Part shown: positions 35,976 through 51,937 of the stretch, piece after piece
Numbering within the stretch: position 1 is the stretch's first letter
Layout of the letters: the number at the start of each line of letters is the position of its first letter
DNA from: an uncultured delta proteobacterium
Lineage (GTDB): Bacteria > Desulfobacterota > Syntrophia > Syntrophales > Fen-1087
Direction: 5' to 3'
DNA length: 64,000 bases
NCBI GenBank assembly: GCA_963754515.1
Contig: CAVWGC010000001.1
Span: forward strand, 456 to 64,455
Translations under genes and position numbers: made by a program
The notes under the pieces: generated by a model
The model's input: the letters and a program-made list of their open reading frames with translations, nothing else
Told to the model about the DNA's origin: nothing
Databases searched by the model: none

Positions 35976-36102
35976 AGCAAATAAGTGTTAAAATGCGAAA
36001 AAGAAAGTTCTCTTCAATAATCAATTTATGAAGGGGCTCTTTCCTGGGGGCTCACCTTCGGAAACGCCCCCACCATCGCGCAGGAAAGGATACGGAACAC
36101 CC

Positions 36103-38247
36103 ATGAGCAACCTGAATGCCATTTTCGCACCGGAGTCGGTGGCCATCATCGGCGCCTCGACCACGCCGGGAAAGGTGGGGCACGATATCTTCGCCAATAT
36201 CCTGAAGGGGGGCTTCACGGGCACCCTCTATCCCGTCAACCCCAAGTCCAAGTCCGTCCTCAGCGTACGGGCCTTCCCCACCATCCGGGACGTCCCCGAC
36301 ACGGTGGATCTGGCCATGATCGTCCTGCCCCCGCAGGAGACCCTGAAGGCCGTCGAGGCGTCCGTGGCACACGGCGTCAAAGGCCTTGTCATCGTCTCCG
36401 CCGGTTTCCGGGAAGTGGGCGGCGCGGGCCTGGAGATCGAGAACCGTATCGTCGCCATTTGCCGGGAGGCGGGTATCCGCCTTGTCGGGCCCAACTGCCT
36501 GGGAGTCATCAACCCCATGCCCGCCGTCCGCCTCAACGCAAGCTTCTCCTCCCGCATGCCCGCCACCGGGAACATCTCCTTCATCTCGCAGAGCGGCGCG
36601 CTCTGTACTGCCGTCCTCGACTTCGCCGCCGACCGGGACTTCGGTTTCTCCAAGTTCATCTCCATCGGCAACAAGGCTGATGTGGACGAGTTGGACCTCC
36701 TCCGCTATTTCTACGAGGATCCGGACACGGCGGTGATCATGCTCTACATGGAGGAGCTCCGTCGGGGCGCGGAGTTCATTGAGGTCGTCAAGGAAATCAC
36801 CTCTGGAAGCCGCCCCACCCCGGTGCTCATCATCAAGTCCGGCCGCACGCGGGCGGGGGCCCAGGCCGCGGCCTCCCACACGGGGGCCCTGGCGGGTACC
36901 GAGGCGGTCTACGAGGCCATCTTCAAGCAGTCCGGGGTAATCCGCGCCGACACCGTGGATGAGCTCTTCGACTTTGCCAACGTCTTCGCCTACAAGCAGG
37001 AGAGCGCCCTCGGCAAGATGCGGCGCAAGCTCCCCGACGGGAACCGGGTGGCTATCGTCACGAACGCCGGCGGCCCGGGGATCCTCGCCACGGACATGAC
37101 CGTCTCATCGGATCTGCGGCTCGCTCAGTTTCAGAAAGAGACCATCGAGGACTTGGCCCAGCACCTGCCGCAGACGGCCAACATCCACAACCCCGTGGAC
37201 ATCATCGGTGACGCCACCCAGGAACGCTATGAGAGCGCCCTGCGGACGGTCATCAACGATCCGGGCGTGGACGGTGCTCTGGTCATTCTCACCCCCCAGT
37301 CCATGACCAACGCCCTAGGCACAGCGGAAGCCATCGTGCGTGTCGCCCGCCGGACCCAAAAGCCGATCCTCTGCTGCTTCATGGGGATCATCGACGTCTC
37401 CCCGGGCGTTAAATTCCTCCAGGAGCACGGGTACCCCGTATACAAGTTCCCTGAAAACACCGCAAAAGCGTTCAGTGCCCTCTATAAATATTCCCACTGG
37501 CTCAATCGGGAGCAACTGCCGGCGCTCACTCTCGCCCATGACCGGGCACAGGCCACCGAGCTAATCCAGCAGTGCCTTGCGGAGGGCCGGACCTATCTCG
37601 GGGAACTGGACGGCCTGGAGTTGCTGCGCTGCTATGGCTTCCAGACCCTTCCGACGCAACTGGCCGTAAGCGAGGGGGTGGCGGCGGACATCGCCGAGTC
37701 CATGGGCTTCCCGGTAGTGATGAAGATCGTCTCCGATCAGATCATCCATAAATCCGACGCGGGCGGCGTGGTGGTGGGGCTGCAGAACCGGGAAGAGACC
37801 GAAGCGGCCTACCACCGGATCATCGCCAACGCACGCCAGTACGACCCCCAGGCCTTCATCCGGGGGGTCCTGGTCCAGAAGATGGCCCCCAAAGGGGAAG
37901 AGGTAATCATCGGCATGAACCGCTACGGGGTCGGCCCGCTGCTGATGTTTGGCCTCGGGGGGATCTTCGTGGAGGTCTTCCGCGACGTGGTTTTCCGCCT
38001 GGCCCCCATCGACCGGAACGAGGCCCACGGCATGATCCGGGAGATCCGGGGCTGGCGGCTGCTCCAGGGCTTCCGGGGTCGTCCCGAGGCGGATACGGAC
38101 ACCTTGGAACGGCTGATGGTGTGCCTCTCCGACCTGGTGACGAACCACCCGGAGATCAATGAAATGGACATCAACCCGCTGCTGGTGCACCCCCAGGGCC
38201 AAGGAGCAACCGTGGCGGATTGTCGCATCATCCTGAGCCCCGCCTGA
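36103..38247 (+). CDS. ADP-forming acetyl/acyl-CoA synthetase (fused alpha-beta, CoA-binding plus ATP-grasp)
   Basis: SVAIIGASTTPGKVG, GPNCLGVINP, ISQSGALC, AASHTGALAG, and a C-terminal ATP-grasp (FPVVMKIVS...HKSDAGGV). Start set at MSNLNAIF. Confidence 0.85.
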   Translation: MSNLNAIFAPESVAIIGASTTPGKVGHDIFANILKGGFTGTLYPVNPKSKSVLSVRAFPTIRDVPDTVDLAMIVLPPQETLKAVEASVAHGVKGLVIVSAGFREVGGAGLEIENRIVAICREAGIRLVGPNCLGVINPMPAVRLNASFSSRMPATGNISFISQSGALCTAVLDFAADRDFGFSKFISIGNKADVDELDLLRYFYEDPDTAVIMLYMEELRRGAEFIEVVKEITSGSRPTPVLIIKSGRTRAGAQAAASHTGALAGTEAVYEAIFKQSGVIRADTVDELFDFANVFAYKQESALGKMRRKLPDGNRVAIVTNAGGPGILATDMTVSSDLRLAQFQKETIEDLAQHLPQTANIHNPVDIIGDATQERYESALRTVINDPGVDGALVILTPQSMTNALGTAEAIVRVARRTQKPILCCFMGIIDVSPGVKFLQEHGYPVYKFPENTAKAFSALYKYSHWLNREQLPALTLAHDRAQATELIQQCLAEGRTYLGELDGLELLRCYGFQTLPTQLAVSEGVAADIAESMGFPVVMKIVSDQIIHKSDAGGVVVGLQNREETEAAYHRIIANARQYDPQAFIRGVLVQKMAPKGEEVIIGMNRYGVGPLLMFGLGGIFVEVFRDVVFRLAPIDRNEAHGMIREIRGWRLLQGFRGRPEADTDTLERLMVCLSDLVTNHPEINEMDINPLLVHPQGQGATVADCRIILSPA

Positions 38248-38412: not shown

Positions 38413-39294
38413 TCAGGCGTGCTCACCGGCCTTGCGCAGCAGCAGTCCCCAGTCCTCGTTGACCATTTGCTGGATCTGGTCGAGGTCCTGATCGGTAAGG
38501 TGCCTGAAGCGACCCTGGAGTCTGAAATACTCCCGCACGAGGTATTCCCTGGGCTTGTAGTTGATCGTATAACGCAGGCCGTCTTCCACCTCATAGAGCG
38601 GGAAAATGTTGGTCTGCACGGCCATGCGGGCGATCTTGACTGACATTTCGGAGGGAATGCGCCAGCCCGTGGGGCAACTCGCGTAGATGTGCAGAAACCG
38701 GGATCCTTTCGTTTCCTTTGCTTTCTGGGCCTTGCGCAGCAGGTCATCGGGATAGGCAATACTGGCTGTCGCCACATAGGGAATCCGGTGGGCCACGAGG
38801 ACTTCCACGATATTTTTCTTGCGCAGTCTTTTCCAGTCCCGGCCGGTGGTGGTCGTCGTCCAGGCGCCGTAGGGTGTGGAGGAGCTGCGCTGGATGCCGG
38901 TATTCATATAGGCTTCATTGTCGTAGCAGACATAGAGGAAATTTTCGTTGCGTTCCACGGCGCCGCTCAAGGCCTGGAAACCGATGTCGAAAGTCCCGCC
39001 GTCTCCGGCCCAGGTGAGCACGGTGGTTTCCGTATCGCCCAGCATGTCCAGGGCCGCCCGCACCCCGGTGGCCGTCGCGCCGCCCGTTTCAAAGGCTGCG
39101 TGGATCACGGGAATCTTCAGCGCCGATTGCGGATAAGCTCCTGCAATCACGGACCAGCAGCAGGCCGGGAGCACCATCATGGTCTTTTCTCCGAGCGCCT
39201 TGAGCACAAAACGCATGGCGATCGTCGCGCCACAACCCGGACATCCCACATGCCCCGAATGGACAAATTCTCGATCCATGACATCAGTCTGCAT
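38413..39294 (-). CDS. 2-oxoacid:ferredoxin oxidoreductase beta subunit (TPP-binding)
   Basis: GCPGCG near the N-terminus and the GDGG TPP motif (WAGDGGTFDIG). Confidence 0.85.
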   Translation of the reverse strand: MQTDVMDREFVHSGHVGCPGCGATIAMRFVLKALGEKTMMVLPACCWSVIAGAYPQSALKIPVIHAAFETGGATATGVRAALDMLGDTETTVLTWAGDGGTFDIGFQALSGAVERNENFLYVCYDNEAYMNTGIQRSSSTPYGAWTTTTTGRDWKRLRKKNIVEVLVAHRIPYVATASIAYPDDLLRKAQKAKETKGSRFLHIYASCPTGWRIPSEMSVKIARMAVQTNIFPLYEVEDGLRYTINYKPREYLVREYFRLQGRFRHLTDQDLDQIQQMVNEDWGLLLRKAGEHA

Positions 39295-40453
39295 ATTTCA
39301 CCTCATGCAACCCCATCCAGACACTTTCCTTTTGTGGCACGTCGCTGTTTTTCGTCTGCCAGTAGATCTCGGTCAGCATTTCCGGCGTCACGTCCCGGCC
39401 GCCGATTCCGGCGATGAAGCCGAATACGGGGGGATGATCGGGCATGTTGCAGAGCACGGCCCGGACCTCCTGGGCAAAGATGCCGCCGGCCCCGAATGAG
39501 AAATTCCGGTCGATGACGGCCACCTTTTTCGCCGCTTTGAGTTCTTCCCGGATCCTCTCTCCGGGAAAGGGCCGGAACAGCTTGATCTTCAGAATGCCCG
39601 CTTTTTCTCCCTTTGCCCTCAATTCCTTCAGGGCGAGGCGGCAGGTGCTCGTCACGGTTCCCGACGTCACGAAGATGATTTCCGCATCCTCGCACGCAAT
39701 GGCCTCTACGGGACCGTACCGCCGGTCAAACTGCGCGGCAAAGACATCCTCGATCTCGCCGAAACGGATGAGGGCGTCTTCCATGGCCAGGGCGATGTGG
39801 TAACGCATTTCCATATAGTCGCCGGGCGCCACCAGCGGGCCGAAGCCGCAGGGGTGCGCCGTGTCCAGTTGAAACTTCGGAACATAAGGGGGCAGAAAAC
39901 GGTCGACTTCTTCCTGGCCGGGGACATCCACCGGTTCATAGGTATGGGAAAGATAGAAGGCGTCCAGGACGATCATGACGGGCAGATTCACCGTTTCGGC
40001 CAGATAAAAAGCCTGGAGGGTCGAGTCCAGCACCTCCTGGCCGTTCTCGCAGTACATCTGGATCCAGCCCGTGTCCCGCTGGGCCAGGCTGTCGGTCTGA
40101 TCGACCCAGATGTTCCATCCCGGCGCGAGGGCCCGGTTGACCTCGGCCATGACGATGGGAAGCCGGGCGCCGGACGCCCAGTGCAGCAGCTCATGCATCA
40201 GGGCAAGCCCCTGCCCGGAGGTCGCAGTGAAGGTTCTCACCCCCGCGGTCTGGGCGCCGATGAGCGCGGCCATGCAGGAATGTTCGCTTTCCACGCGCAG
40301 GAACCTGGCGTTCATCAACCCCTTCGTACAGTATTCCGACAGGATCTCCACAATATGGGTCTGCGGCGTGATCGGATAGGCGGAAATCACCTGAACCTTC
40401 GCCAGCCTCACCGCTTCTGCGACGGCATGGCTGCCTTCCAGGACCCGCTTCAT
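39284..40453 (-). CDS. 2-oxoacid:ferredoxin oxidoreductase alpha subunit
   Basis: MKRVLEGSHAVAEAVRLAKVQVISAYPITPQT... is typical of PorA/VorA. ATGA overlap with the upstream gene. Confidence 0.85.
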   Translation of the reverse strand: MKRVLEGSHAVAEAVRLAKVQVISAYPITPQTHIVEILSEYCTKGLMNARFLRVESEHSCMAALIGAQTAGVRTFTATSGQGLALMHELLHWASGARLPIVMAEVNRALAPGWNIWVDQTDSLAQRDTGWIQMYCENGQEVLDSTLQAFYLAETVNLPVMIVLDAFYLSHTYEPVDVPGQEEVDRFLPPYVPKFQLDTAHPCGFGPLVAPGDYMEMRYHIALAMEDALIRFGEIEDVFAAQFDRRYGPVEAIACEDAEIIFVTSGTVTSTCRLALKELRAKGEKAGILKIKLFRPFPGERIREELKAAKKVAVIDRNFSFGAGGIFAQEVRAVLCNMPDHPPVFGFIAGIGGRDVTPEMLTEIYWQTKNSDVPQKESVWMGLHEVKYAD

Positions 40454-42201
40454 GGCTTCTCCTCCCCGAGGGACATGGCATTGCGGGGACATTCCACCAC
40501 GCACAGGCCGCATCCCTTGCAATAGTCGTAATTGATATGCCGTCCCTGAGGATCCCTCTCAAGGATCACCGAAGTGTCCGGGCAGTAGATGTAGCAGTTG
40601 TCGCACTGGTTGCAGATACCGCAGTTGAAGCAGCGCTCCGCCTCTTTCATGGCCAGTTGGGCTGATATCTTCAGATCGATTTCTTCGAAGGATCGGACCC
40701 GTTCTTCCTTGAGCAGCCGGGGTTGGGTTACCCGGGAAATGAATTGAAAATGATCGGTGTTGATTTCCTCATAGCGGACCACATGCGGGTTTCTGAGCCG
40801 GCGCTCCCCACCCAGATAGACCTCCATGGAAAGGGACCGGCCGTCTCCGACCCGACAGGCCTCCAGTCTCGGGACGACGGCTTCGATACCCTCCTGAAAA
40901 AGGATGTCCAGCGCAATGGCGGCCTGCTTGCCGGACGCGACGGCGTGGACCACACTTTTTGTCGCGTTGGTCAGATCGCCGCCAAAGACCAGGACAGCGC
41001 CCGGTGCCCGGCGGTCCAGAACCGTGTGGGTAAGCTTGAACATTTCCCGATCGGCGGCATCGGGCTCATGCCAGGCTTCAACCACCTGGGCGCCGATGGC
41101 CTTGAAAAGCCGGTCCACCCGGATCTGTCTTATTTTTCCGTGGTCTGGAACAATACGCCCCCTGCTGTTTTCCTCGCCGGCAATCATCATCTCCTGCAGC
41201 GTCAGCAGGATTTTTTCCCCCTCCTGTGCAACAGCCACAAGCGCCACGAGTTCCTGCAGATCCACGCCCTCTTCAAGCGCCATTTCCACTTCAGGATCGA
41301 AGGCGGGCATATCCCGTCGCCGGCGACGGTAGAGCAGGAGGGCTTTTCCCCCCAGGCGCACGATGTTGCGCGCTACGTCGACAGCGGTATTGCCTCCGCC
41401 GATGACGGCCGACACGCCCTGGCAGGCCGGTGTTTTGCCGTCCCGGAGCTGCCGCAGGAAATCCAGGCCCTCACCGACGCCTTTGAGATTCTCTCCGGGC
41501 ACATTCATCGCCGTCCCCCGGCCGTGGCCGCAGGCCATGAACACGGCATCGAAGTCTTTCTTCAACGTTTCCAGAATCTCTGCAGTTACCGGTTTTCCTA
41601 AAACGATGGATACGCCCTGCGCCTCGATCTGCTTGATATCATGCCGCAGGGCCGTCAAAGGCAGACGGTAAGCGGGGATGCCCCAGCGCAGGATCCCGCC
41701 GGCTTCCATGTCTGTCTCAAAAACGCGGCAGGAATAACCCAGCAGGGTCAGAAACCAGGCGGCGGATAGCCCTGCCGGGCCTGCGCCGACAATGGCGATC
41801 TTCTGTCTCCGGGGCGGTCTTATTTCGAGATCCGGTTTGATGCCGTAGCGGATGGCCGTATCCGCAAGAAACCGCTCAAGACTGTGGATGGCCACAGCGG
41901 CATCGAATTCCCGACGGTTGCAGAGGTCTTCACAGGGATGGAAACAGACACGGCCGCAGACGGAAGGAAAGGGATTCTCCAGAAGAATCGTCTCCCAGGC
42001 TTCCTTGAAGAGCCCCTGCGTCGCGAGCATCTCGATCCGGGCGATGTCCTCTCCTGCCGGACAGGCGGCGCTGCAGGGCGATGTTTTTTCATCGTACCGC
42101 GGGCGTGCGAAACGCCACGACCCGGTCTTGTTGCTCTCCGTGGTCAGATAAGTGCACGGCATGAATAAGGGATTGGGATTTGCCGATTCGTTCATGGTCA
42201 T
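40450..42201 (-). CDS. GltD/NfnB-like FAD/NAD(P)-binding oxidoreductase fused to a C-terminal 2x[4Fe-4S] ferredoxin (PorD-like) domain
   Basis: N-terminal Cys motifs (CSAACPAGEDI, CGRVCFHPCEDLC). Dinucleotide folds IAIVGAGPAGLSAA and VIGGGNTAVD. C-terminal CFNCGICNQCDNCYIYCP...CKGCGLCVVECP. Confidence 0.8.
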   Translation of the reverse strand: MTMNESANPNPLFMPCTYLTTESNKTGSWRFARPRYDEKTSPCSAACPAGEDIARIEMLATQGLFKEAWETILLENPFPSVCGRVCFHPCEDLCNRREFDAAVAIHSLERFLADTAIRYGIKPDLEIRPPRRQKIAIVGAGPAGLSAAWFLTLLGYSCRVFETDMEAGGILRWGIPAYRLPLTALRHDIKQIEAQGVSIVLGKPVTAEILETLKKDFDAVFMACGHGRGTAMNVPGENLKGVGEGLDFLRQLRDGKTPACQGVSAVIGGGNTAVDVARNIVRLGGKALLLYRRRRRDMPAFDPEVEMALEEGVDLQELVALVAVAQEGEKILLTLQEMMIAGEENSRGRIVPDHGKIRQIRVDRLFKAIGAQVVEAWHEPDAADREMFKLTHTVLDRRAPGAVLVFGGDLTNATKSVVHAVASGKQAAIALDILFQEGIEAVVPRLEACRVGDGRSLSMEVYLGGERRLRNPHVVRYEEINTDHFQFISRVTQPRLLKEERVRSFEEIDLKISAQLAMKEAERCFNCGICNQCDNCYIYCPDTSVILERDPQGRHINYDYCKGCGLCVVECPRNAMSLGEEKP

Positions 42202-42203
42202 TT

Positions 42204-42767
42204 TTATCCGATCATTCCCAGCAGGCAGACCGCTTCGAACGCCTCGCGGGCCGCCTCGATATTTTTTTGCGCCTCGGCTGCAAGGTCTTCCCTGATTGCA
42301 GCGGCAATGGCTTCCAGGGGCGGCATTCCCAGTATCCTTGAGAAGGCCCCGATCATGGCGGTGTTGACGATGGGATGGGTGCGCGTCCCCAGCCGGTGAT
42401 TGAGCGCGATCTGATTGGCGTCCACATGGGCCAATTGAAAACCGGCATAGGGCGTCAAATCGACAGGCGGCGAGGGGCCGTTGATCAGAATCCAGCCGCC
42501 GGGCTTCAGCCCCCGCGTGACATTGATGCTGTGCAGAAGGGTCTGATCCTGAACGGCCACGTGGTCCGGCGTGGTGACGTTTGTTCGCAGCAGGATCTTT
42601 TCCCTGTCCAGGCGAACATAGGCTTCGACGGGTGCGCCGCGCCGCTCTACGCCGAAAAAGGGGAAGCTCTGAACCTGATAGCCGGCCTCGAAAAAGGCCT
42701 TGGCCAGCAGAATGGTGGCGACCACCGTTCCCTGGCCGCCGCGGCCGTGAAAACGGATCTCGATCAT
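42204..42767 (-). CDS. 2-oxoacid:ferredoxin oxidoreductase gamma subunit
   Basis: MIEIRFHGRGGQGTVV is the canonical PorG N-terminus. Confidence 0.85.
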   Translation of the reverse strand: MIEIRFHGRGGQGTVVATILLAKAFFEAGYQVQSFPFFGVERRGAPVEAYVRLDREKILLRTNVTTPDHVAVQDQTLLHSINVTRGLKPGGWILINGPSPPVDLTPYAGFQLAHVDANQIALNHRLGTRTHPIVNTAMIGAFSRILGMPPLEAIAAAIREDLAAEAQKNIEAAREAFEAVCLLGMIG

Positions 42768-42780
42768 TTTTTTACCTTTT

Positions 42781-43383
42781 TCAGGTTTTGTTCCACACAA
42801 CCACCACGGCCCGCGCCGGGGCCTCCGTCAGCGAGCGGAAACTGTGGTTCAGGCCGGAGTCAAAATAAAGGGCGTCGCCGGCAGAAAGGCTCTCCACGCG
42901 GTCATTGGTGCGGAATTCAAGCTTTCCATCCAGAAGAAACATGAATTCCTCTCCTTCGTGGCTCGTGAACACCATCTCTGCCGTTTCCATCGGCACGAAT
43001 TCGACCAGAAGCGGTTCCATATGCTTGCCGGGCATCCTGGCCTCGAGGGACTCGTAGACATAATCGACCTCGCCTTCCCGGTGATGCGGGCGCCGCTTGA
43101 CGCTGAGCCGTTCTCCGGCCCGGGTGACGGAAACCTGCTCGACAGGCGCCTCATCCTTGAAGAAATAGGCCATCCCGATATTGAGCGCCCTGGCCAGCTT
43201 CAGCAGGGTGGCCACGGGCGGCATGATCTCGTCGGATTCGATCTCGTTCAGCACGGATTTGGAAATGCCGGTCTTCGCAGCCAGGTCGTGGAGGGTATAG
43301 AAGTTTCTTTCACGCAGATCTTTGACCTTGCCGCCGATTTTGAATTCCCCTGCGGCAGAAAGGGTTTGCTCGTTCTGTGGCAT
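42781..43383 (-). CDS. XRE-family HTH regulator with a C-terminal cupin domain
   Basis: LRERNFYTLHDLAAKTGISKSVLNEIESDE (HTH_3), then a cupin beta-barrel (HEGEEFMFLLDGKLEF...YFDSGLNHSF). Start at MPQNEQ after GGAGGTG. Confidence 0.8.
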   Translation of the reverse strand: MPQNEQTLSAAGEFKIGGKVKDLRERNFYTLHDLAAKTGISKSVLNEIESDEIMPPVATLLKLARALNIGMAYFFKDEAPVEQVSVTRAGERLSVKRRPHHREGEVDYVYESLEARMPGKHMEPLLVEFVPMETAEMVFTSHEGEEFMFLLDGKLEFRTNDRVESLSAGDALYFDSGLNHSFRSLTEAPARAVVVVWNKT

Positions 43384-43582
43384 TTTCTCACCTCCACCGG
43401 AACAGGTTCGTATGAGGTTAAGAACAACCTTTGGATGACAGACGGGCTTCTTATATCGGAAGTCAACGACATGATGCCCAAGGGAAACGGGGATGTCAAG
43501 GAAAAACAGGAAAAACGACGGCATGAATGCGGCGCCGAAGCGGTCGCCGTGCCCGTGATACATGCCGTATTCTGAAGCGCCC

Positions 43583-45244
43583 TCAGGACTCTCTGCGGCG
43601 GCAGGCATCCACAACGAGTTGTGCAAGGTGATCGCCGATCAGGGCATAGGGCAGAAGCACTTCATTGGCCCCGCTCGTTTTCAAAATTTCAACCTCATCA
43701 ACCGAATCGGCAGTGGCGACGATAACGGCGTTCGGCGCTATGACGCGACAGGTCGTTACTATTGACTGGTTGTTTGTTCCCTTAAGCAGCATATCGGGAA
43801 TGGTCGAAAGGATCACTTCCGCATGAGCGACGTGGGCGTGTTCCAGAGTATCCCTGCTGCTGATGTCGCCGAATATTCCCTTAATATTCCTGTCATTTAA
43901 CTCTTTCAGGACTTCGAGGTTGAAATCGATCACCAGGGTCTTCTTCAAAATATCGGGAGATATTTCATCCAGCCGGTCGATGACAGACCGGGCCCCACGG
44001 TGAAACCCGAGGAGCACCACCGGATAATGATTCCGAAGTTCCTCCGATGCTGATTCTTTGTATTTCGACGCTAAGCCGGTCCTGGCGAGCAAACGCTCGA
44101 ACATCAGGTACGCATCGTGATTGCCCTTGATGAAATAGGAAGAAAGGACCGAGGTGACGGCCATCGCGTAGATGATCAGCGACAGCATGCGTTGCTCGAT
44201 GTGGCCGTAACCCACACCGAGAGCCGCGACCACAAGCGAGAATTCGCTGACCTGCGACAGATTGAGACTGGCGATGAAGCTCGTGCGCCGTCCGCTTCCG
44301 GCAAGCGAGAGGATCGGATAGATCGTCAGAAAACGGGAGACGATCACGAACAATACGATAACCCCCGCCATGATCAGCATGGCGAGGTCCGGAACGGGGA
44401 TCTTCATGCCGATGGACAGAAAAAAGAGAGTCAGAAAGAAATCGCGCAGGGGCAGCACCTTTGCCGTGACATGGACGCTGTAGGGAAACGTTGAGATGGC
44501 CACCCCGGCGATCAACGCCCCCATTTCCATGGAAAGACCGATCCAGGCCCCCGTTCCCGCCATGAACGCGCACCAGGCAATGGACATGGCCACCACCATT
44601 TCCGGCGTTTTCGAGATTTTTTCAAAAACCCAGCGAAGCAGATATTTGCTTAGAAAAAAACCAATGGCCAGAAGCGCTATACTCTTGCCGAGCGCGATGA
44701 CGACGAGATGAATCTGAGGATTGGTAAAATGGGGCTGCAGGGCCAGGATCAGGATCGCCCAGAGGTCCTGAAAGATGAGGATGCCGAGCGTCATGCGGCC
44801 CGGAAGGGTGTCGAACTCAAACTTGTCGTACAGGAGCTTGACCACAATGGCCGTACTGCTCAACGCGCAGAGCAGCGCCAGATACAGGGCGTCGATCCGG
44901 CCTTTGCTGAGCTCGTAGCCCAACAACAGGAAGAACCCCAGCCCCATGAGAACACACAGGATAAACTGACCCACCCCGGCGTAGAACAACTGCCGCCCTG
45001 AAGAGAGAAGTTTTTTGGGATTGAGTTCCAGGCCGATAATGAACAGCAGCAGGATCAATCCGATTTCCGAGATGACTTCGACATTGGCCGGCTCGGAGAC
45101 CAGCTTGAAGCCTATCCCGGGACCAATCAGGGCGCCGGCAACGAGATAACCCAGGATGACGGGCTGACGGAAAAGCTGGAAGACAAACCCAAGCGCCGTG
45201 GCCGAAAGAATGGAAATGCCGATATCGGGAAGGAGGCCATGCAT
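43583..45244 (-). CDS. CPA2 cation:proton antiporter with a C-terminal RCK (TrkA-N) domain
   Basis: Kef-type N-terminus (QPVILGYLVAGALIGP), about 12 TM segments, and VVLLGFHRGARSV Rossmann-like RCK. Confidence 0.85.
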   Translation of the reverse strand: MHGLLPDIGISILSATALGFVFQLFRQPVILGYLVAGALIGPGIGFKLVSEPANVEVISEIGLILLLFIIGLELNPKKLLSSGRQLFYAGVGQFILCVLMGLGFFLLLGYELSKGRIDALYLALLCALSSTAIVVKLLYDKFEFDTLPGRMTLGILIFQDLWAILILALQPHFTNPQIHLVVIALGKSIALLAIGFFLSKYLLRWVFEKISKTPEMVVAMSIAWCAFMAGTGAWIGLSMEMGALIAGVAISTFPYSVHVTAKVLPLRDFFLTLFFLSIGMKIPVPDLAMLIMAGVIVLFVIVSRFLTIYPILSLAGSGRRTSFIASLNLSQVSEFSLVVAALGVGYGHIEQRMLSLIIYAMAVTSVLSSYFIKGNHDAYLMFERLLARTGLASKYKESASEELRNHYPVVLLGFHRGARSVIDRLDEISPDILKKTLVIDFNLEVLKELNDRNIKGIFGDISSRDTLEHAHVAHAEVILSTIPDMLLKGTNNQSIVTTCRVIAPNAVIVATADSVDEVEILKTSGANEVLLPYALIGDHLAQLVVDACRRRES

Positions 45245-45259
45245 GACCGTGATCGTTTT

Positions 45260-45457
45260 CTATCCAGGCACGCGTTTCACGGCGCCGCTGTTTACAAGCT
45301 CGTGCAACTGGGCCAGGAGCTGCCGCTCCTGGGGGTCGATTTTCATATCCGCATTGGCGAGCGCGAGAATCTTTTCGTATTCCATGGTCGTCAGTTCATG
45401 ATCCTCGATGGCCTTGTCGATCATTTCTTTTAATTTGGCGGCTTCTTTGCTTAACAT
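45260..45457 (-). CDS. Small helical hypothetical protein upstream of the antiporter
   Basis: MLSKEAAKLKEMIDKAIEDHELTTMEYEKILALANADMKIDPQERQLLAQLHELVNSG. The rest of the track ORF is R1 repeat DNA. The stop lies 15 nt before the antiporter start. Confidence 0.45.
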   Translation of the reverse strand: MLSKEAAKLKEMIDKAIEDHELTTMEYEKILALANADMKIDPQERQLLAQLHELVNSGAVKRVPG

Positions 45458-45518
45458 GAATAACACCTCTCTCTGGATTCTGCTCACTTGGACCGGATCG
45501 CTCTTTCGGGCATGACGG

Positions 45519-45653
45519 CTTCGTAGAAAGTCCGGATGCTGCGTGGCGCTGCATCCTTCGTCATTGCGGCGTACGTAAAAGTACGCCTCATTTGGATGGG
45601 GACACGACTCTGTCATGTCCCCATGCGCCTTGCCTGCGGAACTTTTTACGCAG
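45519..45653 (+). repeat. Repeat family R1, long form
   Basis: CTTCGTAGAAAGT...CTTTTTACGCAG, with an internal palindrome as in 16718-16852. Confidence 0.85.
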
Positions 45654-45775
45654 CCGTCGAAATAGGCTCATTTTTCGATTTTTTGCGAGTCCGTCAATCA
45701 TGCGGCAATATAGGAGAGTACATCGGGAATGTCAATACCATTCCTGGAACTTGAGCGTGCGTACGGGCTTTGATC

Positions 45776-47770
45776 TCATGCCTTTCCTGGTTCGGGATGA
45801 TTGTACAGACGCATCGCGTCTGCAATCTTGTCGGGTTCACCGACGACAAACAGGATATCTCCTTCCGAAAAGACCGTTTCAGCCGGGGGGTTGGAAATGA
45901 TCTCATTCTTCCGGCGCACGGCCAACACGGACACACCCATCTTTTTTCGCATCTCCGTCTCGGCCAGCGTTTTCCCGGTAAGCAGCGAGCCTTCGGCAAT
46001 GCGAAAGGATTTTATTTCCACGTCCGGCAGGCATAATTCAATATCCATACAGGTTGAGGCCTCCCTCGAAAGGCTTCGCAGCATCTCGTAGCGCTCCGAA
46101 CGGATTTCCGCCACAAACCGCTCAATCTCCTCCTTCGGCATGAGATATTTTGCCAGCACACGGCTGAAGATTTCCACCGACGTTTCAAATTCTTCCGGAA
46201 TGACTTCATCGGCGCCCAGCTCGCACAGGGGCGCCATTTCCTGAATGAACCGCGTGCGGACTACAAGATAAATTTTCGAATTCAATCTTCGGGCCAATTC
46301 CGTAATCCGTCGTGTTGCCGCCGGATCATTGATGACCACCACCAGGGCCTTGGCGGTTTTAATGTTCAAATGCTGAAGAACCGCCTCCTGGGTGGCGTCG
46401 CCGTAATAGATCGGCGTCCCTTTGGCACGCTCCTCCCTCACCACCGTCGGGTTCATTTCGAGGATGACGTAAGGAATGCCGCTGAATTTCGCGGCGCGGG
46501 CCAGATTCCGCCCGTTGAGGCCAAATCCCACAATAACGAGATGGTTTTTTGCATGCAACCGCTCCGTATGGGGCGCCGGATAGGATCCCCGCTTGATGTT
46601 TCTGGGCAGGGGCAATTTTTGGACCAGCGCTGCAATCCGGGGGGACGCCGCCAGGGCAAAGGGCGTCGCCATCATCGTCAACACGGATACCGCCAGGAAT
46701 CCCTGATGCATAGCACCCGCAAGCAGGCCATGCTGAAGGGCCTTCTCCGACAGGATAAAGGAAAATTCACCCACCTGGCCGAGGGAAACGGACACGAGAA
46801 CGGCCGTGCGCAAGGAAAGGCCCAGGAGGATCGCGATCACAAGGACAATCAGGGCTTTGAAGATGAATACGCCCAGGGCCAGCAACGCCAGATAAAGAGG
46901 GTGCTCCAGAAGAAACCCCATATTGAGCAGCATCCCGATGGATACGAAAAAGAAGCTCGTGAAGACGTCGCGGAAGGGCAGGATGTTGCCGAGCGCCTGA
47001 TGGCTGTATTCGGATTCGGAGATGATCAGTCCGGCCATAAAGGCGCCCAGGGCCAGGGAGAGTCCCGCCAGGTGGGTCAGCCAGGCTACGGCCAGACAGA
47101 TGGCGATTACGCTTAGCAGGAACAATTCACGGCTTTTTGTACGGGCGATGCTGTAGAATACGTGCGGCACGATCCATTTCGCACTGACGATCACCAGCGC
47201 AACGATCGCGACGACCTTCGCCAGAAAAAGCAGCAGCGAATCCATATCGCCGCCCTTCCCCTCTCCGGCCAGCAGCGGAACAAGCAGCATCATGGGAACG
47301 ATGATGATGTCCTGAAAGATCAGGATGCCGAGGGCCGTGTTGCCCTGCGGGGTTTCGACCTCGGCACGGTCCTGGAGGATTTTCATGACGATGGCGGTGC
47401 TGCTCAGGGAAACCAGAAAGCCGATCAGCACCGATTCCCCGATGCCCAAGCCGAAATATCGCGAGACGCCAAAGGCGGCGGCGACCGTGATGACGACCTG
47501 AAGCGAACCGCCGATCAAGACGGATCTCCTGATCTGCAGCAGGCTGCGGAAGGAAAATTCAAGGCCGATCGTAAAAAGCAGCAGCACCACGCCCACATCG
47601 GCCAGGATTTTGACCGCGTCAATATCCCGGACCAGTCCCAGCCCGTAGGGACCGCTGATCAGGCCGGTCGCCAGAAATCCCACGATAATGGGAACCCGTA
47701 TCAGGTGGCACACATACAGAACAAAGGCCGAAAGGCCAACGATAATGAGGATATCATTCAACAGGGGCAT
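45776..47770 (-). CDS. CPA2 cation:proton antiporter with TrkA-N and TrkA-C domains
   Basis: VPIIVGFLATGLISGP, 12-13 TM segments, LVIVGFGLNGRNLA (RCK-N), and a C-terminal RCK-C (GKTLAETEMRKKMGVSVLAVRR). Confidence 0.85.
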   Translation of the reverse strand: MPLLNDILIIVGLSAFVLYVCHLIRVPIIVGFLATGLISGPYGLGLVRDIDAVKILADVGVVLLLFTIGLEFSFRSLLQIRRSVLIGGSLQVVITVAAAFGVSRYFGLGIGESVLIGFLVSLSSTAIVMKILQDRAEVETPQGNTALGILIFQDIIIVPMMLLVPLLAGEGKGGDMDSLLLFLAKVVAIVALVIVSAKWIVPHVFYSIARTKSRELFLLSVIAICLAVAWLTHLAGLSLALGAFMAGLIISESEYSHQALGNILPFRDVFTSFFFVSIGMLLNMGFLLEHPLYLALLALGVFIFKALIVLVIAILLGLSLRTAVLVSVSLGQVGEFSFILSEKALQHGLLAGAMHQGFLAVSVLTMMATPFALAASPRIAALVQKLPLPRNIKRGSYPAPHTERLHAKNHLVIVGFGLNGRNLARAAKFSGIPYVILEMNPTVVREERAKGTPIYYGDATQEAVLQHLNIKTAKALVVVINDPAATRRITELARRLNSKIYLVVRTRFIQEMAPLCELGADEVIPEEFETSVEIFSRVLAKYLMPKEEIERFVAEIRSERYEMLRSLSREASTCMDIELCLPDVEIKSFRIAEGSLLTGKTLAETEMRKKMGVSVLAVRRKNEIISNPPAETVFSEGDILFVVGEPDKIADAMRLYNHPEPGKA

Positions 47771-48518: not shown

Positions 48519-48604
48519 GAAGGAATTGTCATTGCCGCATTTTGGCAACAGGAATGCATTGATCACTTTATTTTATTGATTTTATTGATGAAAGGAGGAT
48601 GTTT

Positions 48605-50371
48605 ATGACAACCACAGTCGTTATTATCATCGGTTTTATCATTTATGTAGGTCTCTACTTCACGTACGGTAAAAAGATCGAGCGGGACGTCGTCCGGGCG
48701 TCGGACGATATCAAGACGCCCGCCCATCGCCTTTACGACGGCGTGGACTACATTCCGGCCCATAAGGCGGTCCTCTTCGGACATCACTTTTCGTCCATCG
48801 CCGGCGCGGGGCCGCTCGTCGGGCCGGCACTGGCCATTTGTTGGGGCTGGCTTCCGGGCCTGTTGTGGGTCTGGTTCGGCAATGTCCTGATCGGCTCCGT
48901 GCACGACTATCTGGCCCTGATGGCTTCGGTGCGTTACGACGGCAAATCCGTCCAGTTCGTGGCGTCGGATCTGATCTCCAAAAGGACGGGCAGGGCCTTC
49001 TACTGGCTCGTCTTTTTCCTGCTGATCCTGGTCGTGGCGGCCTTTGGCAATATCATCGGCATGATGTTCGTCAACACGCCGTCAATCGCCGGAGCTTCCA
49101 TTTACATGACTTTCGCCGGGCTCATCCTGGGGGTCCTGATCTACCGGGTCAAGATGAACCTGCCGGCAGCCACCGTCATCGGCATCGTCATGATGGCTAT
49201 CGCCATCTGGGCAGGCACGCAATTTCCCGTGCCGGCCAGCTACGAGGTGTGGATGGTGGTTCTGTTCCTCTACATCATCATCGCCGCGGCCATACCCGTG
49301 AATGTGCTCTTGCAGCCGCGGGATTACATGAATTCCTTCCTGCTGTATTTCGGCATCGCCATCGGGTTCATCGCCGCCATCTTCACGTTCCGGGGCTTTG
49401 AGGTTCCCATGGTAACCTCGTTTTCGCCGATCCTGATGGGAGGAAAACCGACGCCCTTCTGGCCCGCCATCCTGCTGGTCATCGCCTGCGGCTCGCTGTC
49501 GGGTTTCCACTCACTCGTCGGATCCGGCACCACTTCTAAACAGCTCTCCAAAGAGAGTGACGGCCTGTTCGTGGGATACGGCGCCATGTTTACGGAAGGC
49601 TTCCTCTCAACGTTGATTATCTGCGCCATCGGCGGCTTCGGCTATACGGCCATCCAGAACGCCCATGCCGCGCAGGCCGCAGCGGCTCTGGCCAAGGACG
49701 CCACGGCGGCCATGGTACCGTTAGCCCTGACTGCGGACAACTGGGGGGAACTCTACACGAAGACCACGGCGACCCTGAAGCTCCCGGCGCCGACCATGAT
49801 CGTCCAGTGCTTCTCCGACATGGTCGCCGCGAGTTTCCTGTCCTTCCTGCCCGTGAAGATCGTCAAGGTCATCGCGGGGCTCTGGATTTCGGCCTTCGCC
49901 CTGACAACGCTCGATACGACAAACCGGCTGGCCCGCTACTGCCTCGTGGAGATGCTTCAGCCGCTGAAAAACACGGCGGAGGGTCTTTACAAGGCCCTGA
50001 CGTTCCGCTGGACCGCCTCGCTTATTCCTGCGGCCATCGGCATCTATCTGGCCTGGAGCAAACAGTTCACGATCCTCTGGCCGTCTTTCAGCGCCGCCAA
50101 CCAACTCATCGCCGCCATCGCACTGATGACGGGCGCAGCCTATGTCTCCAAGAAGATGCAGTCCAAGTTTGCCATCATGGCCGTCATTCCGGCCTGGCTC
50201 CTCTGGATCACCGTCACGGCGGCCATCATCTGGTTCATGGCCGTCGTCATGCCGGGCGCCATTGCCAAAAGCCCCGGTCAGGGCTGGACGGTCCAGATCA
50301 TCATGGGGATCATGCTGATCCTGAACATCCTGTTTATTGTTGACTTTACGAAGTCGAGGAAACAGCCGTAA
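48605..50371 (+). CDS. cstA: Carbon starvation protein A (peptide/pyruvate transporter family)
   Basis: VLFGHHFSSIAGAGPLVGPALA signature and about 16 TM segments. The ATG at 48605 is 6 nt after GGAGG. The track start at 48599 abuts the RBS. Confidence 0.9.
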   Translation: MTTTVVIIIGFIIYVGLYFTYGKKIERDVVRASDDIKTPAHRLYDGVDYIPAHKAVLFGHHFSSIAGAGPLVGPALAICWGWLPGLLWVWFGNVLIGSVHDYLALMASVRYDGKSVQFVASDLISKRTGRAFYWLVFFLLILVVAAFGNIIGMMFVNTPSIAGASIYMTFAGLILGVLIYRVKMNLPAATVIGIVMMAIAIWAGTQFPVPASYEVWMVVLFLYIIIAAAIPVNVLLQPRDYMNSFLLYFGIAIGFIAAIFTFRGFEVPMVTSFSPILMGGKPTPFWPAILLVIACGSLSGFHSLVGSGTTSKQLSKESDGLFVGYGAMFTEGFLSTLIICAIGGFGYTAIQNAHAAQAAAALAKDATAAMVPLALTADNWGELYTKTTATLKLPAPTMIVQCFSDMVAASFLSFLPVKIVKVIAGLWISAFALTTLDTTNRLARYCLVEMLQPLKNTAEGLYKALTFRWTASLIPAAIGIYLAWSKQFTILWPSFSAANQLIAAIALMTGAAYVSKKMQSKFAIMAVIPAWLLWITVTAAIIWFMAVVMPGAIAKSPGQGWTVQIIMGIMLILNILFIVDFTKSRKQP

Positions 50372-50397
50372 GACATTGCCGTTAAACCATTCAACCG

Positions 50398-50437
50398 GAT
50401 GGGACGGCGCAGGTTTCCCAACCTGCGCCGTCCCATC
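50398..50437 (+). terminator. 18-bp perfect stem-loop after cstA (terminator-like, no U-tract)
   Basis: GATGGGACGGCGCAGGTT-tccc-AACCTGCGCCGTCCCATC. Confidence 0.45.
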
Positions 50438-50463
50438 CACTCCGATATTCACGAAAAGGCCTT

Positions 50464-50498
50464 TGAAAAATGGCCGCGCCGCGTGCGAGCCATTTTTC
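50464..50498. repeat. Miniature R3-like hairpin
   Basis: TGAAAAATGGC-N14-GCCATTTTTC uses the same terminal 10-mers as the R3 elements. Confidence 0.55.
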
Positions 50499-50814
50499 TG
50501 CGGTTATGCAGAACTCTCGCGGACTCTTCATGGACTCTAAATGGATGCGCTTCTGCCGCCGGATTGCCGCCGATATGGGCACAACCCAGCGTCAGCGCGC
50601 GGCGGCCCTCACCTGCGTGGAAGAGCGGGAGCTCGAAAATATCTTTGCGCTGCTGCTGCTGGGGTCTTTTGTCGGCCTGCCGGCGCCGCCGACCTTTCTG
50701 GCCGTGGAACTTCTCCCCTTTATGCAAAAAGAACTAAAGCTCTTGAGCCAGCGGGCGGAGGACGCCCCGGATATGCTGGCCGTGCTCATGGGATCCTTGG
50801 GGGTTGACGGATGA
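50470..50814 (+). CDS. Small hydrophobic hypothetical protein, translationally coupled to the ArsA-like ATPase (start uncertain: 50470, 50506, 50530 or 50545)
   Basis: The frame ends GVDG-TGA, overlapping the arsA-like ATG (ATGA). Hydrophobic core IFALLLLGSFVGLPAPPTFLAVELLPF. The first ATG lies inside the hairpin at 50464-50498, so a later start is likelier. Confidence 0.4.
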   Translation: MAAPRASHFSAVMQNSRGLFMDSKWMRFCRRIAADMGTTQRQRAAALTCVEERELENIFALLLLGSFVGLPAPPTFLAVELLPFMQKELKLLSQRAEDAPDMLAVLMGSLGVDG

Positions 50815-51776
50815 GGATCTTGTTTTATACCGGCAAGGGCGGCGTCGGAAAATCCACCATGGCCGCGGCGGCGGCATGGCAGCTCTCAAAGAAACACCGG
50901 GTCCTGATTGTCTCCCTGGATCCGGCTCATAACCTGGGTGACCTGTTCGGAGTCAGCCTGAAAAACCGCCGCAAGCGCTTCTCCGATACCCTCTATCTCG
51001 AAGAAGTCGACCTGAAACGCCTGGCCCGGGCCTATCTGGAACGGGAAACGACCGTTCTTGAGGAATCCTATCCCTATCTGAGCGCCATGAATCTTGACCG
51101 TTATTTCTCGGTGCTCAAGTATTCGCCCGGCATCGAGGAATACGCGCTTTTGACCAGCATCGAGAAGACGATCCGCGAAGACCTGGATTTTGATTTCATC
51201 ATCTTCGACACGCCGCCGACGGGGCTCACGCTGCGGTTTCTGGCGCTGCCCCAGGTCACCGTCACGTGGATCGAGCGGCTGACGGCTATCCGGCGCCAGA
51301 TTCTGGAAAAACGCTACACGATCCAGAAGATCCGCGGAACCCCCGGAAACGAAAGCGCGGAGACGGGCGTTCGCCTCAACTTCAGCGAGGACGACGACGA
51401 CATGCTCAGGCGGCTCAAAACGCTGCACGAGAATTACCGACGGCTGAACGGGACTCTCCAGGGGGCGGATTGCGGGATCGTTCTCGTTTTCAATCCCGAC
51501 CTGCTTTCAATACGGGAATCGGAGCGGCTCATCACGGGGCTCAAAGAGCTGAAACTTCCATTGAGGCTCCTGATCCAGAACAAGGTCTCCACGGAAAACG
51601 CCGATACGGCGGAGCGGACGGCCCTGCATCTCCGAACGAAGGTCAGTCAAGACATCCCTTTTCAGCAGGTCAGATTGCAAAGCGCTCTGGCCGACGACCG
51701 GGGCGACGATTTCTTTTCCCTGCCGGAAGATATGACGAAACATTTGATTTCAACAGCGGGTAACGATCATGTTTGA
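50811..51776 (+). CDS. ArsA/Get3-family P-loop ATPase, single-domain (321 aa)
   Basis: MRILFYTGKGGVGKSTMAAA (deviant Walker A), SLDPAHNLGDLFG, and IIFDTPPTGLTLRFL. Confidence 0.85.
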   Translation: MRILFYTGKGGVGKSTMAAAAAWQLSKKHRVLIVSLDPAHNLGDLFGVSLKNRRKRFSDTLYLEEVDLKRLARAYLERETTVLEESYPYLSAMNLDRYFSVLKYSPGIEEYALLTSIEKTIREDLDFDFIIFDTPPTGLTLRFLALPQVTVTWIERLTAIRRQILEKRYTIQKIRGTPGNESAETGVRLNFSEDDDDMLRRLKTLHENYRRLNGTLQGADCGIVLVFNPDLLSIRESERLITGLKELKLPLRLLIQNKVSTENADTAERTALHLRTKVSQDIPFQQVRLQSALADDRGDDFFSLPEDMTKHLISTAGNDHV

Positions 51777-51816
51777 TGAACCAGCAAAAAGTCGAGCAAT
51801 GAACCGGACACGACGG

Positions 51817-51931
51817 CTTTGTAAAAAGCTCCGCAGGCAAGGCGCGCAAATCATGAGGAGTGAAGCGTACTTTGGCGTACGCCGCAATGACGAAGGATGC
51901 AGCGCAACGCGGCATCCGGACTTTTTACGAG
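51817..51931 (-). repeat. Repeat family R1, short form, inverted
   Basis: Reverse complement of the 8748-8863 type. It lies between the ArsA-like gene and the next ORF. Confidence 0.85.
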
Positions 51932-51937
51932 GGCGTC

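Follow-up and report, generated by a model that had tools for sequence, protein, structure and literature searches.

A gene cluster on the minus strand of a 64,000-nucleotide stretch of DNA from an uncultured delta proteobacterium of the Syntrophales (assembly GCA_963754515.1, contig CAVWGC010000001.1; the whole stretch is called the window here) raises the question how a 2-oxoacid:ferredoxin oxidoreductase (OFOR) passes on its electrons if its operon encodes a large iron-sulfur flavoprotein, here called X, at the position of the small ferredoxin subunit PorD. A preliminary description of the locus had proposed that X wires the oxidation or synthesis of a 2-oxoacid directly to NAD(P)(H), or allows a bifurcating-type reaction. 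We found that X takes the place of PorD in the OFOR operon, and the sequences suggest that the complex is probably a self-sufficient 2-oxoacid:NADP+ oxidoreductase in which X replaces the delta ferredoxin. The core of the earlier proposal thus holds, with X in the porD slot, natural fusions of X and a separate cluster of X-linked alpha subunits; several details had to be corrected, and the activity itself is a prediction.

X in the place of PorD

The OFOR genes are located at the following positions of the window:

42204..42767, minus strand: OFOR gamma subunit, 187 aa from the ATG (PF01558, 132 bits)
40450..42201, minus strand: X, iron-sulfur flavoprotein of 583 aa with a DsrL-like domain order, in place of PorD
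39284..40453, minus strand: OFOR alpha subunit, 389 aa (POR_N 235 bits, PFOR_II 102 bits)
38413..39294, minus strand: OFOR beta subunit, 293 aa, with thiamine pyrophosphate (TPP) and one [4Fe-4S] cluster (TPP_enzyme_C 70.6 bits)

The order gamma-X-alpha-beta, the length of X, the tight packing and a co-directional XRE-cupin regulator gene ahead of the four genes were all present as described before. The regulator gene ends 13 nt before gamma, the ATG of X follows immediately after the gamma stop codon, the stop of X and the start of alpha overlap in an ATGA, and the last 11 nt of alpha are shared with beta. For gamma an alternative start is possible at an upstream TTG (42800). A separate porD (about 80-130 aa) was not found in this operon; its PorD-type domain is the C-terminus of X.

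We collected 52 POR-type operons from named genome contigs, close relatives and an even sample of 81 genomes of the phylum, and classified their open reading frames (ORFs) with the proteins of the window and the separate PorD of the same genome. The order gamma-X-alpha-beta was found in 28 operons, and in five more X follows beta (gamma-alpha-beta-X; Actinomycetota, a Rhodocyclaceae metagenome-assembled genome (MAG), Actinotalea subterranea HO-Ch2 and one genome of the phylum). Another 17 have the order gamma-porD-alpha-beta with a PorD of 97 aa and without X, and X together with a separate porD was present in none of the 52. Operons of the X type occur in at least ten phyla, among them Thermodesulfobacteriota, Planctomycetota, Acidobacteriota, Bacteroidota, Bacillota (Moorellales), Actinomycetota, Tectimicrobiota, Fraseribacteriota and Pseudomonadota. 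In the sample from the phylum, 15 or more of the 81 genomes carry such an operon, and some carry two or three.

Natural fusions of X were also found, namely proteins of about 750 aa that join gamma to X and proteins of 1130-1190 aa in which X is joined to an IorA-like unit (also at L019, L020 and L022). In a quick maximum-likelihood tree of the alpha subunits, 26 of the 28 sequences from operons with X before alpha fall into one group (SH-aLRT 87), the alphas of operons with X after beta form a fully supported clade, and 15 canonical alphas form a 98% clade. Mapped onto this tree, the labels X-linked and canonical need four changes, compared to a mean of 19.6 when they are shuffled. The tree labels and the names of close homologues also place the genome of the window among Syntrophales-type Thermodesulfobacteriota.

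Two arrangements outside this scheme were observed. In Acidobacteriota, X-like genes adjoin a single-chain protein of about 1193 aa that resembles pyruvate:ferredoxin oxidoreductase (PFOR) (L023:626-4210 and L036:7688-11269), and the X module may thus also serve nifJ-type enzymes. In an X-type operon from Tectimicrobiota (L021:7261-9498) the beta subunit is a 745-aa ORF, suggesting a further C-terminal fusion.

A missing stop codon or a frameshift between two genes could in principle generate an artificial fusion, a concern raised in the preliminary description. This was not borne out, since length, domains and cysteine pattern of X are conserved in many clusters. More than 100 clusters with 61-91% identity to X have equal length and equal Pfam domains. 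In an exhaustive search of 1.8 billion representatives, the C-terminal cysteine pattern, defined as C-x2-C-x2-C-x2-C-x2-C-x3-CP plus a second ferredoxin motif, was common to 139 of the 150 best hits; these 139 have a median length of 572 aa and an identity down to 35%. The fusion, whose spread had been suggested for a survey, is present in many phyla and in at least 139 clusters at 50% identity, a lower bound as it is derived from the best 150 representatives. Reads contributed less: the fraction of sampled words found in any sequencing run reached at most 0.20, and four runs yielded short contigs of relatives with 85-99% likeness. No frame-breaking indel at the X junction was seen in the contigs of relatives from DNA runs, which are short and never span the gene. 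Metatranscriptome contigs of relatives cover parts of X; they may be DNA carry-over and are too weak to speak for expression or accuracy.

Domains and proposed cluster ligands of X

X had been described as a GltD/NfnB-like protein. The NfnB-like body was found, but the nearest relatives are DsrL and the NfnL-like domain of NfnABC/Stn and not GltD. The NCBIfam model NF009410 (PRK12771, "NAD(P)-binding protein") matches X end to end (positions 27-565 of 566); elsewhere it reaches 749 bits on a DsrL-like gene and 776 and 714 bits on the OFOR-linked genes of the Rhodocyclaceae MAG and of Actinotalea, respectively. The nearest solved chains are 9bov_A, 8oh5_C and 9n5u_A (E 1e-61 to 1e-70, TMq 0.71-0.73, about 620 columns), followed in sequence and fold by NfnB/NfnL, dihydropyrimidine dehydrogenase and GltD. 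An AlphaFold2 model built on 34 homologues predicts a compact single rigid body (pLDDT 91.6, pTM 0.90). Four regions can be distinguished:

41848..42087, minus strand: X residues 39-118, Fe-S part of the NfnB-like body (Fer4_20, 64 bits)
40894..41811, minus strand: X residues 131-436, FAD and NAD(P) Rossmann domains (Pyr_redox_2 at 134-396, 66.5 bits)
40615..40737, minus strand: X residues 489-529, transposed N-terminal segment of NfnB/NfnL, ending in RC524FNC527G (alignment)
40453..40620, minus strand: X residues 528-583, PorD-type 2x[4Fe-4S] ferredoxin domain (PorD profiles, dicluster at 528-581)

The motifs quoted earlier are present: GAGPAG at 139-144, GGGNTA at 268-273 and CFNCGICNQCDNCYIYCP...CKGCGLCVVECP at 524-572. 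The cysteines of the two reported N-terminal Fe-S motifs are there as well, but they provide only some ligands of two clusters (C43, C47, C86, C90, C94 and E109). These six positions are invariant or nearly so in 34 homologues with 32-59% identity, E109 being fully invariant, and C82 varies. The first CxxC of NfnB is absent from the N-terminal Fe-S region of X. Residues 489-529 of X, located after the flavoprotein body, align with residues 7-47 of P. furiosus NfnI-L (E 1e-4) and with residues 13-43 of T. maritima NfnB, so that C524 falls on Cys39 and C527 on Cys42 of NfnB. In T. maritima NfnB the distal cluster is bound by Cys39, Cys42, Cys47 and Cys100 and the proximal one by Cys51, Cys90, Cys96 and Glu117 (PMC7596348). 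The counterparts in X are C524, C527, C43 and C94 for the distal and C47, C86, C90 and E109 for the proximal cluster, with the first two permuted; from homology and invariance we infer that they are the ligands. C47, C86 and C90 also align with C108, C147 and C151 of Csac NfnA (cluster A7), and E109 with Lys170 (ligands according to PMC11829005).

A late RCxxCG after the flavoprotein body is shared by 9bov, 9n5u, the DsrL-like gene and three paralogues in this genome. Judged by this motif and by the alignment to the N-terminus of NfnB, the "linker" of about 100 aa in X is a relocated N-terminal piece of the NfnB fold and not a loose tether. The permutation changes the reading of the "linker" of DsrL-type proteins too: it would be a relocated cluster-binding segment instead of a flexible connection. 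In the published reading of DsrL, Ser/Thr and Cys/Arg serve as N-terminal ligands of the distal cluster, which may need revisiting given the late CxxC. A DsrL-like gene carrying RCMSCGLCFECDNCVVYCP (749 bits on NF009410) was observed in a Rhodocyclaceae MAG (L110:1-16000), in a dsr-type cluster with DsrAB-like NIR_SIR and DsrK-, DsrM-, DsrO-, DsrP- and DsrN-like genes.

The last 100 or so residues of X had been assigned to a PorD ferredoxin. A PorD-type domain is indeed present, but it comprises only about 55 residues, and C524 and C527 belong to the NfnB-like module. All eight cysteines of the domain (C530/533/536/540 and C561/564/567/571) are invariant in the 34 homologues. Residues 509-583 (75 residues) score 59.3 bits on PRK09625 and 58.1 bits on PorD_Arch, the best non-PorD ferredoxin models stay below 30 bits on residues 436-583, and residues 530-578 match the delta subunit of a PFOR (9bt4_G, E 1.6e-11). 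C527 lies three residues before C530, and the distal cluster and the first PorD cluster must therefore be neighbours. Taken together, this arrangement implies that X would hold an unbroken wire of four clusters. Co-folding of alpha, beta and X(436-583) gave a score of 0.64 and did not discriminate, as 0.65 was obtained with an unrelated protein replacing alpha.

At the other end of this wire, X contains the motif YRR (Y291-R292-R293). In T. maritima NfnB the 2'-phosphate is bound at YRR, and in recombinant enzymes the motif marks the NADP(H)-preferring DsrL-2 as opposed to the NAD(H)-using DsrL-1 (PMC7596348). Among the 139 representatives of the family, 83 contain it, and in at least nine an acidic variant suggests NAD. 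The motif predicts that X prefers NADP(H).

Predicted reaction and rival explanations

The motif Y26-P27-I28-T29-P30 and R107 of alpha are conserved in 18 homologues, and G97-D98-G99, N126, C18, C21, C46 and C207 of beta are invariant; judged by these positions, alpha and beta keep the residues expected for an active enzyme. Alpha reaches 475 bits on PorA_Arch (cut-off 550) and 409 bits on VorA (cut-off 646), beta 404.6 bits on the VOR-type model PRK11864 (cut-off 405, missed by 0.4) and 363 bits on PorB (cut-off 405), and gamma 190 bits on TIGR02175 PorC_KorC (cut-off 81). Kor/Oor models give 30-161 bits on the subunits, far under their cut-offs and below the POR/VOR models, with 106-161 bits for KorA-type models on alpha compared to 475 bits for PorA_Arch. 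The nearest solved chains are those of four-subunit PFOR (9bt4_B with 322 bits for alpha, 9bt4_C with 244 bits for beta), then oxalate oxidoreductase, and the sequence around the substrate arginine of alpha is nearly identical to 9bt4. By these matches alpha, beta and gamma are POR/VOR-class 2-oxoacid oxidoreductase subunits.

We conclude that the substrate is likely a short aliphatic 2-oxoacid, either pyruvate or one with a branched chain. A branched-chain substrate is favoured by profile scores that lean towards VOR: the studied alpha scores 409 bits on VorA and the canonical PorA of the same genome 302 bits, and the X-linked alphas are the most VorA-like alphas of the phylum sample. A VorA that passes the NCBIfam cut-off was found in none of the 81 genomes. 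In favour of pyruvate are the similarity to the solved four-subunit PFOR and a conserved neighbouring operon, cstA-DUF7990-ArsA-like-CCDC47-like, which is the divergent neighbour of the regulator-OFOR unit in three relatives (L093, L094 and L142; 62-77% identity). CstA-family proteins import peptides and, in E. coli, pyruvate. In the window the cstA operon is located at 48599-52609 (cstA at 48599-50371), 5 kb away and beyond two Kef-type antiporter genes (43583-47770).

In the proposed route the 2-oxoacid would be decarboxylated on TPP in alpha/beta and the acyl group transferred to CoA. The two electrons would exit singly via the [4Fe-4S] cluster of beta, and since a separate delta subunit is lacking, every electron leaving beta would have to pass through X. 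They would move through both clusters of the PorD-type domain, then the distal cluster of the NfnB-like body (C43, C94, C524, C527) and the proximal cluster (C47, C86, C90, E109), and would collect on the FAD, from which a hydride is transferred to NADP+. The net reaction would be 2-oxoacid + CoA + NADP+ -> acyl-CoA + CO2 + NADPH, with soluble ferredoxin unnecessary and some electron leakage to ferredoxin possible. The 2-oxoacid/acyl-CoA couple has a potential of about -500 mV and NADP one of about -320 mV; this drop of about 180 mV would strongly favour the oxidative direction.

Several observations weigh against such an enzyme. An energy-limited syntroph would be expected to hold on to its low-potential electrons, and a loss of about 180 mV is odd in this light. 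E109 corresponds to the Glu ligand of bifurcating NfnB/NfnL and not to the Lys of the non-bifurcating NfnABC module, which may give the proximal cluster a very low potential. X scores 478.9 bits on NF009410, below the cut-off of 516, and its PorD domain 59.3 bits on TIGR02179 PorD_KorD, just below the cut-off of 60.05; as both scores are below cut-offs, the DsrL-type and PorD assignments are based on domain architecture and gene context. For the substrate the profile scores disagree, with alpha scoring best on PorA_Arch and beta on a VOR-type model. Finally, the alpha tree is a quick one and midpoint-rooted, and two acidobacterial X-linked alphas are placed elsewhere on a long branch.

If the FAD of X is used as in NfnB, the enzyme might be a confurcating or bifurcating one, in which an electron from the 2-oxoacid and an electron from a donor of higher potential, e.g. 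NADH via an NfnA/NfnS-like partner encoded elsewhere, jointly reduce NADP+. This would conserve the energy of the low-potential electrons; run backwards, the enzyme would divide the electrons of NADPH between the OFOR and an acceptor of high potential. The Glu proximal ligand (E109, equivalent to E117) and YRR, which X shares with bifurcating NfnB/NfnL, speak for this, as does a host that is a Syntrophales-type anaerobe, an organism that energy conservation would suit, with a genome that encodes many NfnL-like modules in fusions with HdrA-like, NuoF-like and other partners. We nevertheless consider it unlikely. A gene for NfnA/NfnS, a PyrK-like [2Fe-2S] flavoprotein, is present neither in the operon nor in the operons of the relatives examined, where the unit always consists only of regulator-gamma-X-alpha-beta, and the family is common in Acidobacteriota, Actinomycetota, Planctomycetota and Bacteroidota, in which such coupling is unexpected. 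DsrL has the same architecture and is a plain NAD(P)H:acceptor oxidoreductase (PMC7596348). In the closest solved homologues the NfnL-like module works without bifurcation, and the FAD equivalent to that of X is located at the end of the electron chain (PMC11829005). A plain oxidoreductase is thus favoured over confurcation, and the bifurcating-type reaction of the preliminary description is not. It would go further to regard X-type OFORs in general as energy-conserving OFOR/Nfn hybrids, in which a Glu-ligated proximal cluster of very low potential and the NfnB-type FAD would allow low-potential electrons and those of a second donor of higher potential to be confurcated to two NADPH, with the partner of the second branch encoded outside the operon. 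We think this very unlikely; if true, such hybrids would form a new class among the flavin-based bifurcating enzymes, with a TPP enzyme as their direct foundation, and in reverse bifurcated NADPH oxidation would drive 2-oxoacid synthesis.

In principle OFORs can run in both directions, and some anaerobes use POR/VOR as synthases. NADPH might thus enter at X and drive the reductive carboxylation of acetyl- or branched-chain acyl-CoA for amino acid synthesis, for which X could pass electrons either way, as DsrL enzymes work in both directions with dyes (PMC7596348). This anabolic role appears even less probable than the hybrid: NADPH (about -320 to -370 mV) is about 130-180 mV too positive for a carboxylation at -500 mV and no coupling device is encoded, and both the conserved cstA uptake operon and an ATP-yielding ADP-forming acyl-CoA synthetase in the window point to catabolism. 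Another explanation is that X is not the main outlet of the enzyme but a general NADPH:ferredoxin-type redox hub or a protective or reactivating subunit that replaces PorD structurally, its flavin mainly keeping the OFOR clusters reduced or trading electrons with soluble ferredoxin. The family is frequent in lineages with many aerobes, where protection of OFORs from oxygen matters, and the 2-oxoglutarate oxidoreductase (KGOR) of Azoarcus evansii reportedly passes electrons to both ferredoxin and NADP+. However, with no separate delta subunit the electrons of beta have no way out except through X, and the complete and invariant cluster chain and the dinucleotide sites, kept down to 32% identity, argue for a catalytic route, and we regard such an accessory role as improbable.

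Neighbouring genes, related enzymes and biological meaning

Upstream of the OFOR genes the unit contains two further features:

42781..43383, minus strand: XRE-family helix-turn-helix (HTH) and cupin regulator of 200 aa, leading the unit (HTH_3 47.5 bits, Cupin_2 53.9 bits)
43471..43499, minus strand: candidate sigma-70-like promoter, TTGACA, 17 nt spacer, CATCAT (consensus scan), about 88 nt upstream of the regulator start

A PuuR-like match of the regulator was weak in profile searches. The regulator gene also precedes gamma-X-alpha-beta in the relatives L093, L094/L095, L142 and L143, and the cstA/regulator intergenic region of the relatives may hold its operator. The predicted promoter is a pattern match and no proof of function; the pair TTGACA...CATCAT is also kept in L093.

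On the other side an ADP-forming acyl-CoA synthetase of 739 aa (36028-38247, plus strand) converges on porB with a stop-to-stop gap of 165 nt, in which a consensus scan found no terminator-like hairpin. The synthetase would fit a route from 2-oxoacid via acyl-CoA to acid and ATP. As a conserved pathway partner it was rejected, since it is not located beside X in any other locus examined, and the link is thus a local one.

NfnL-like modules are encoded at further places of this genome. Contig C14 (5979-11821; L009:2979-8821) carries a second, canonical porG-porD-porA-porB operon, the PorB of which is over the cut-off (438 bits). Directly after it come a gene for an NfnL-like flavoprotein of 642 aa, which has a NuoF-type Fe-S region at its N-terminus, and one for a HoxU/NuoG-N-like protein of 248 aa. 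In this case a complete POR has the NADP module beside it as a gene of its own, which suggests a different, possibly Bfu-like coupling of POR to pyridine nucleotides. A near-identical copy on contig C20 may reflect the contamination estimate of 8.4% or a true repeat. On contig C6 (22966-27396; L010:3966-8396) a 1476-aa HdrA-like + NfnL-like fusion has the same six-cysteine string as X (C624-C640), and on contig C8 (127706-133471; L011:3706-9471) a 1018-aa NuoF+NfnL-like protein is encoded beside a formate-dehydrogenase-like gene, which is split into ORFs of 356 aa and 538 aa, possibly at a selenocysteine codon. Judged by these homologies, the genome uses the NADP module as a plug for several redox enzymes.

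By analogy, the closest functional precedent of the X-type OFOR would be the KGOR of A. evansii, which Ebenau-Jehle, Boll and Fuchs are said to have described in 2003 as a FAD-containing OFOR of three subunits that reduces NADP+ directly. Its subunits reportedly have masses of 63, 62 and 37 kDa, matching a gamma+alpha fusion, X and beta, with FAD and Fe-S in the subunit of about 62 kDa. Kronen et al. 2023 placed the alpha subunit of KGOR, the flavoprotein, among GltD homologues (PMC10134865). KGOR is 2-oxoglutarate-specific and Kor-type, whereas the alpha and beta studied here are of the POR/VOR type. A Rhodocyclaceae locus (L085) was tried as a KGOR candidate and rejected, the match being inside a 1087-aa ORF of another kind.

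DsrL is the closest characterised homologue of X, serving a different enzyme. In both, the N-terminal Fe-S part is followed by the FAD/NAD(P) domains, the linker of about 100 aa and a 2x[4Fe-4S] domain at the C-terminus (PMC7596348); both match NF009410 and contain the six-cysteine string RCxxCGxCxxCxxCxxxCP, and the YRR rule for NADP(H) applies to both. DsrL, however, is encoded in dsr clusters and serves DsrAB, whereas X is located between porG and porA, and the C-terminal domain of X is more PorD-like (59 compared to 42 bits on TIGR02179); on NF009410, X stays below the family cut-off. Löffler et al. 2020 noted DsrL-like genes immediately linked to pyruvate/ketoisovalerate:ferredoxin oxidoreductase genes and excluded them from their study (PMC7596348); lacking a dsrAB linkage and having a POR/VOR linkage, X differs from DsrL proper in criteria 1 and 3 of these authors.

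The NfnL-like domain of Bfu-type NfnA/StnC (9bov, 9n5u, 8oh5) has the late CxxC of X, and there the NADPH-FAD ends the cluster chain (PMC11829005, PMC12018979, PMC10482914). That module has a formate-dehydrogenase/NuoG-like domain as its fusion partner, supplies a bifurcating FMN site and has Lys as proximal ligand, where X has Glu. NfnB/NfnL of NfnAB (NfnSL; 4ylf, 5jca) shares the FAD/NADP fold, the Glu-ligated proximal cluster and YRR with X. In contrast to it, X is circularly permuted, so that the 45 N-terminal residues of NfnB (with Cys39 and Cys42) sit after the flavoprotein body, carries an additional PorD-type domain and lacks an adjacent NfnA/S partner gene. Four-subunit PFOR (9bt4) and the canonical porGDAB operon of contig C14 have homologous alpha, beta and gamma subunits and the gene order found here; canonical operons encode a PorD of 85-97 aa and use soluble ferredoxin, and here PorD is present only as the last 55 residues of X.

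A POR-like OFOR with a flavoprotein subunit that reduces pyridine nucleotide is reportedly also found in PadEFGHI, the phenylglyoxylate:NAD+ oxidoreductase of Hirsch, Schagger and Fuchs (1998). The PadH model NF045765 hit six places in the genome, none of them X, so PadH represents a different flavoprotein class; in addition, PadH is separate from the delta subunit PadF, while X carries the PorD-type domain itself, and the Pad alpha, beta and gamma models are far below their cut-offs on the studied subunits. The preliminary description had named the eukaryotic PFOR-reductase fusion as precedent. It shares the proposed net reaction, but KGOR and phenylglyoxylate:NAD+ oxidoreductase are closer. 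The eukaryotic pyruvate:NADP+ oxidoreductase (Euglena, Cryptosporidium) is a single-chain PFOR with a cytochrome-P450-reductase-like FMN/FAD module unrelated to X. In the proteins of our operon, profile searches found no flavodoxin or ferredoxin-NADP reductase domain, and the subunits are separate.

In the literature searched, which covered few subscription journals, we found no description of an X-type OFOR enzyme. A 2026 review of PFOR diversity (PMC13768988) mentions neither glutamate synthase nor GltD nor phenylglyoxylate, and Vanoni's review of Fe-S flavoenzymes does not mention X-type OFORs. The architecture of X is already known as a sequence family (NF009410), and the POR/VOR linkage was noticed, and not pursued, by Löffler et al. 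(PMC7596348). The X-type OFOR is thus widespread and mechanistically interpretable, and it is neither unprecedented in principle nor a newly discovered gene arrangement.

If the predicted reaction is true, NADP+ takes the place of soluble ferredoxin in the oxidation of pyruvate or related 2-oxoacids by a large and taxonomically broad set of bacteria, to which many Acidobacteriota, Actinomycetota, Planctomycetota, Bacteroidota and Thermodesulfobacteriota belong. Metabolic reconstructions in which all por/vor operons are taken to supply reduced ferredoxin would then err on the X-type ones. The enzyme would also be a compact, self-sufficient engineering candidate for the formation of acyl-CoA and NADPH, and it would represent a prokaryotic counterpart of the eukaryotic pyruvate:NADP+ oxidoreductase that is made from different parts.

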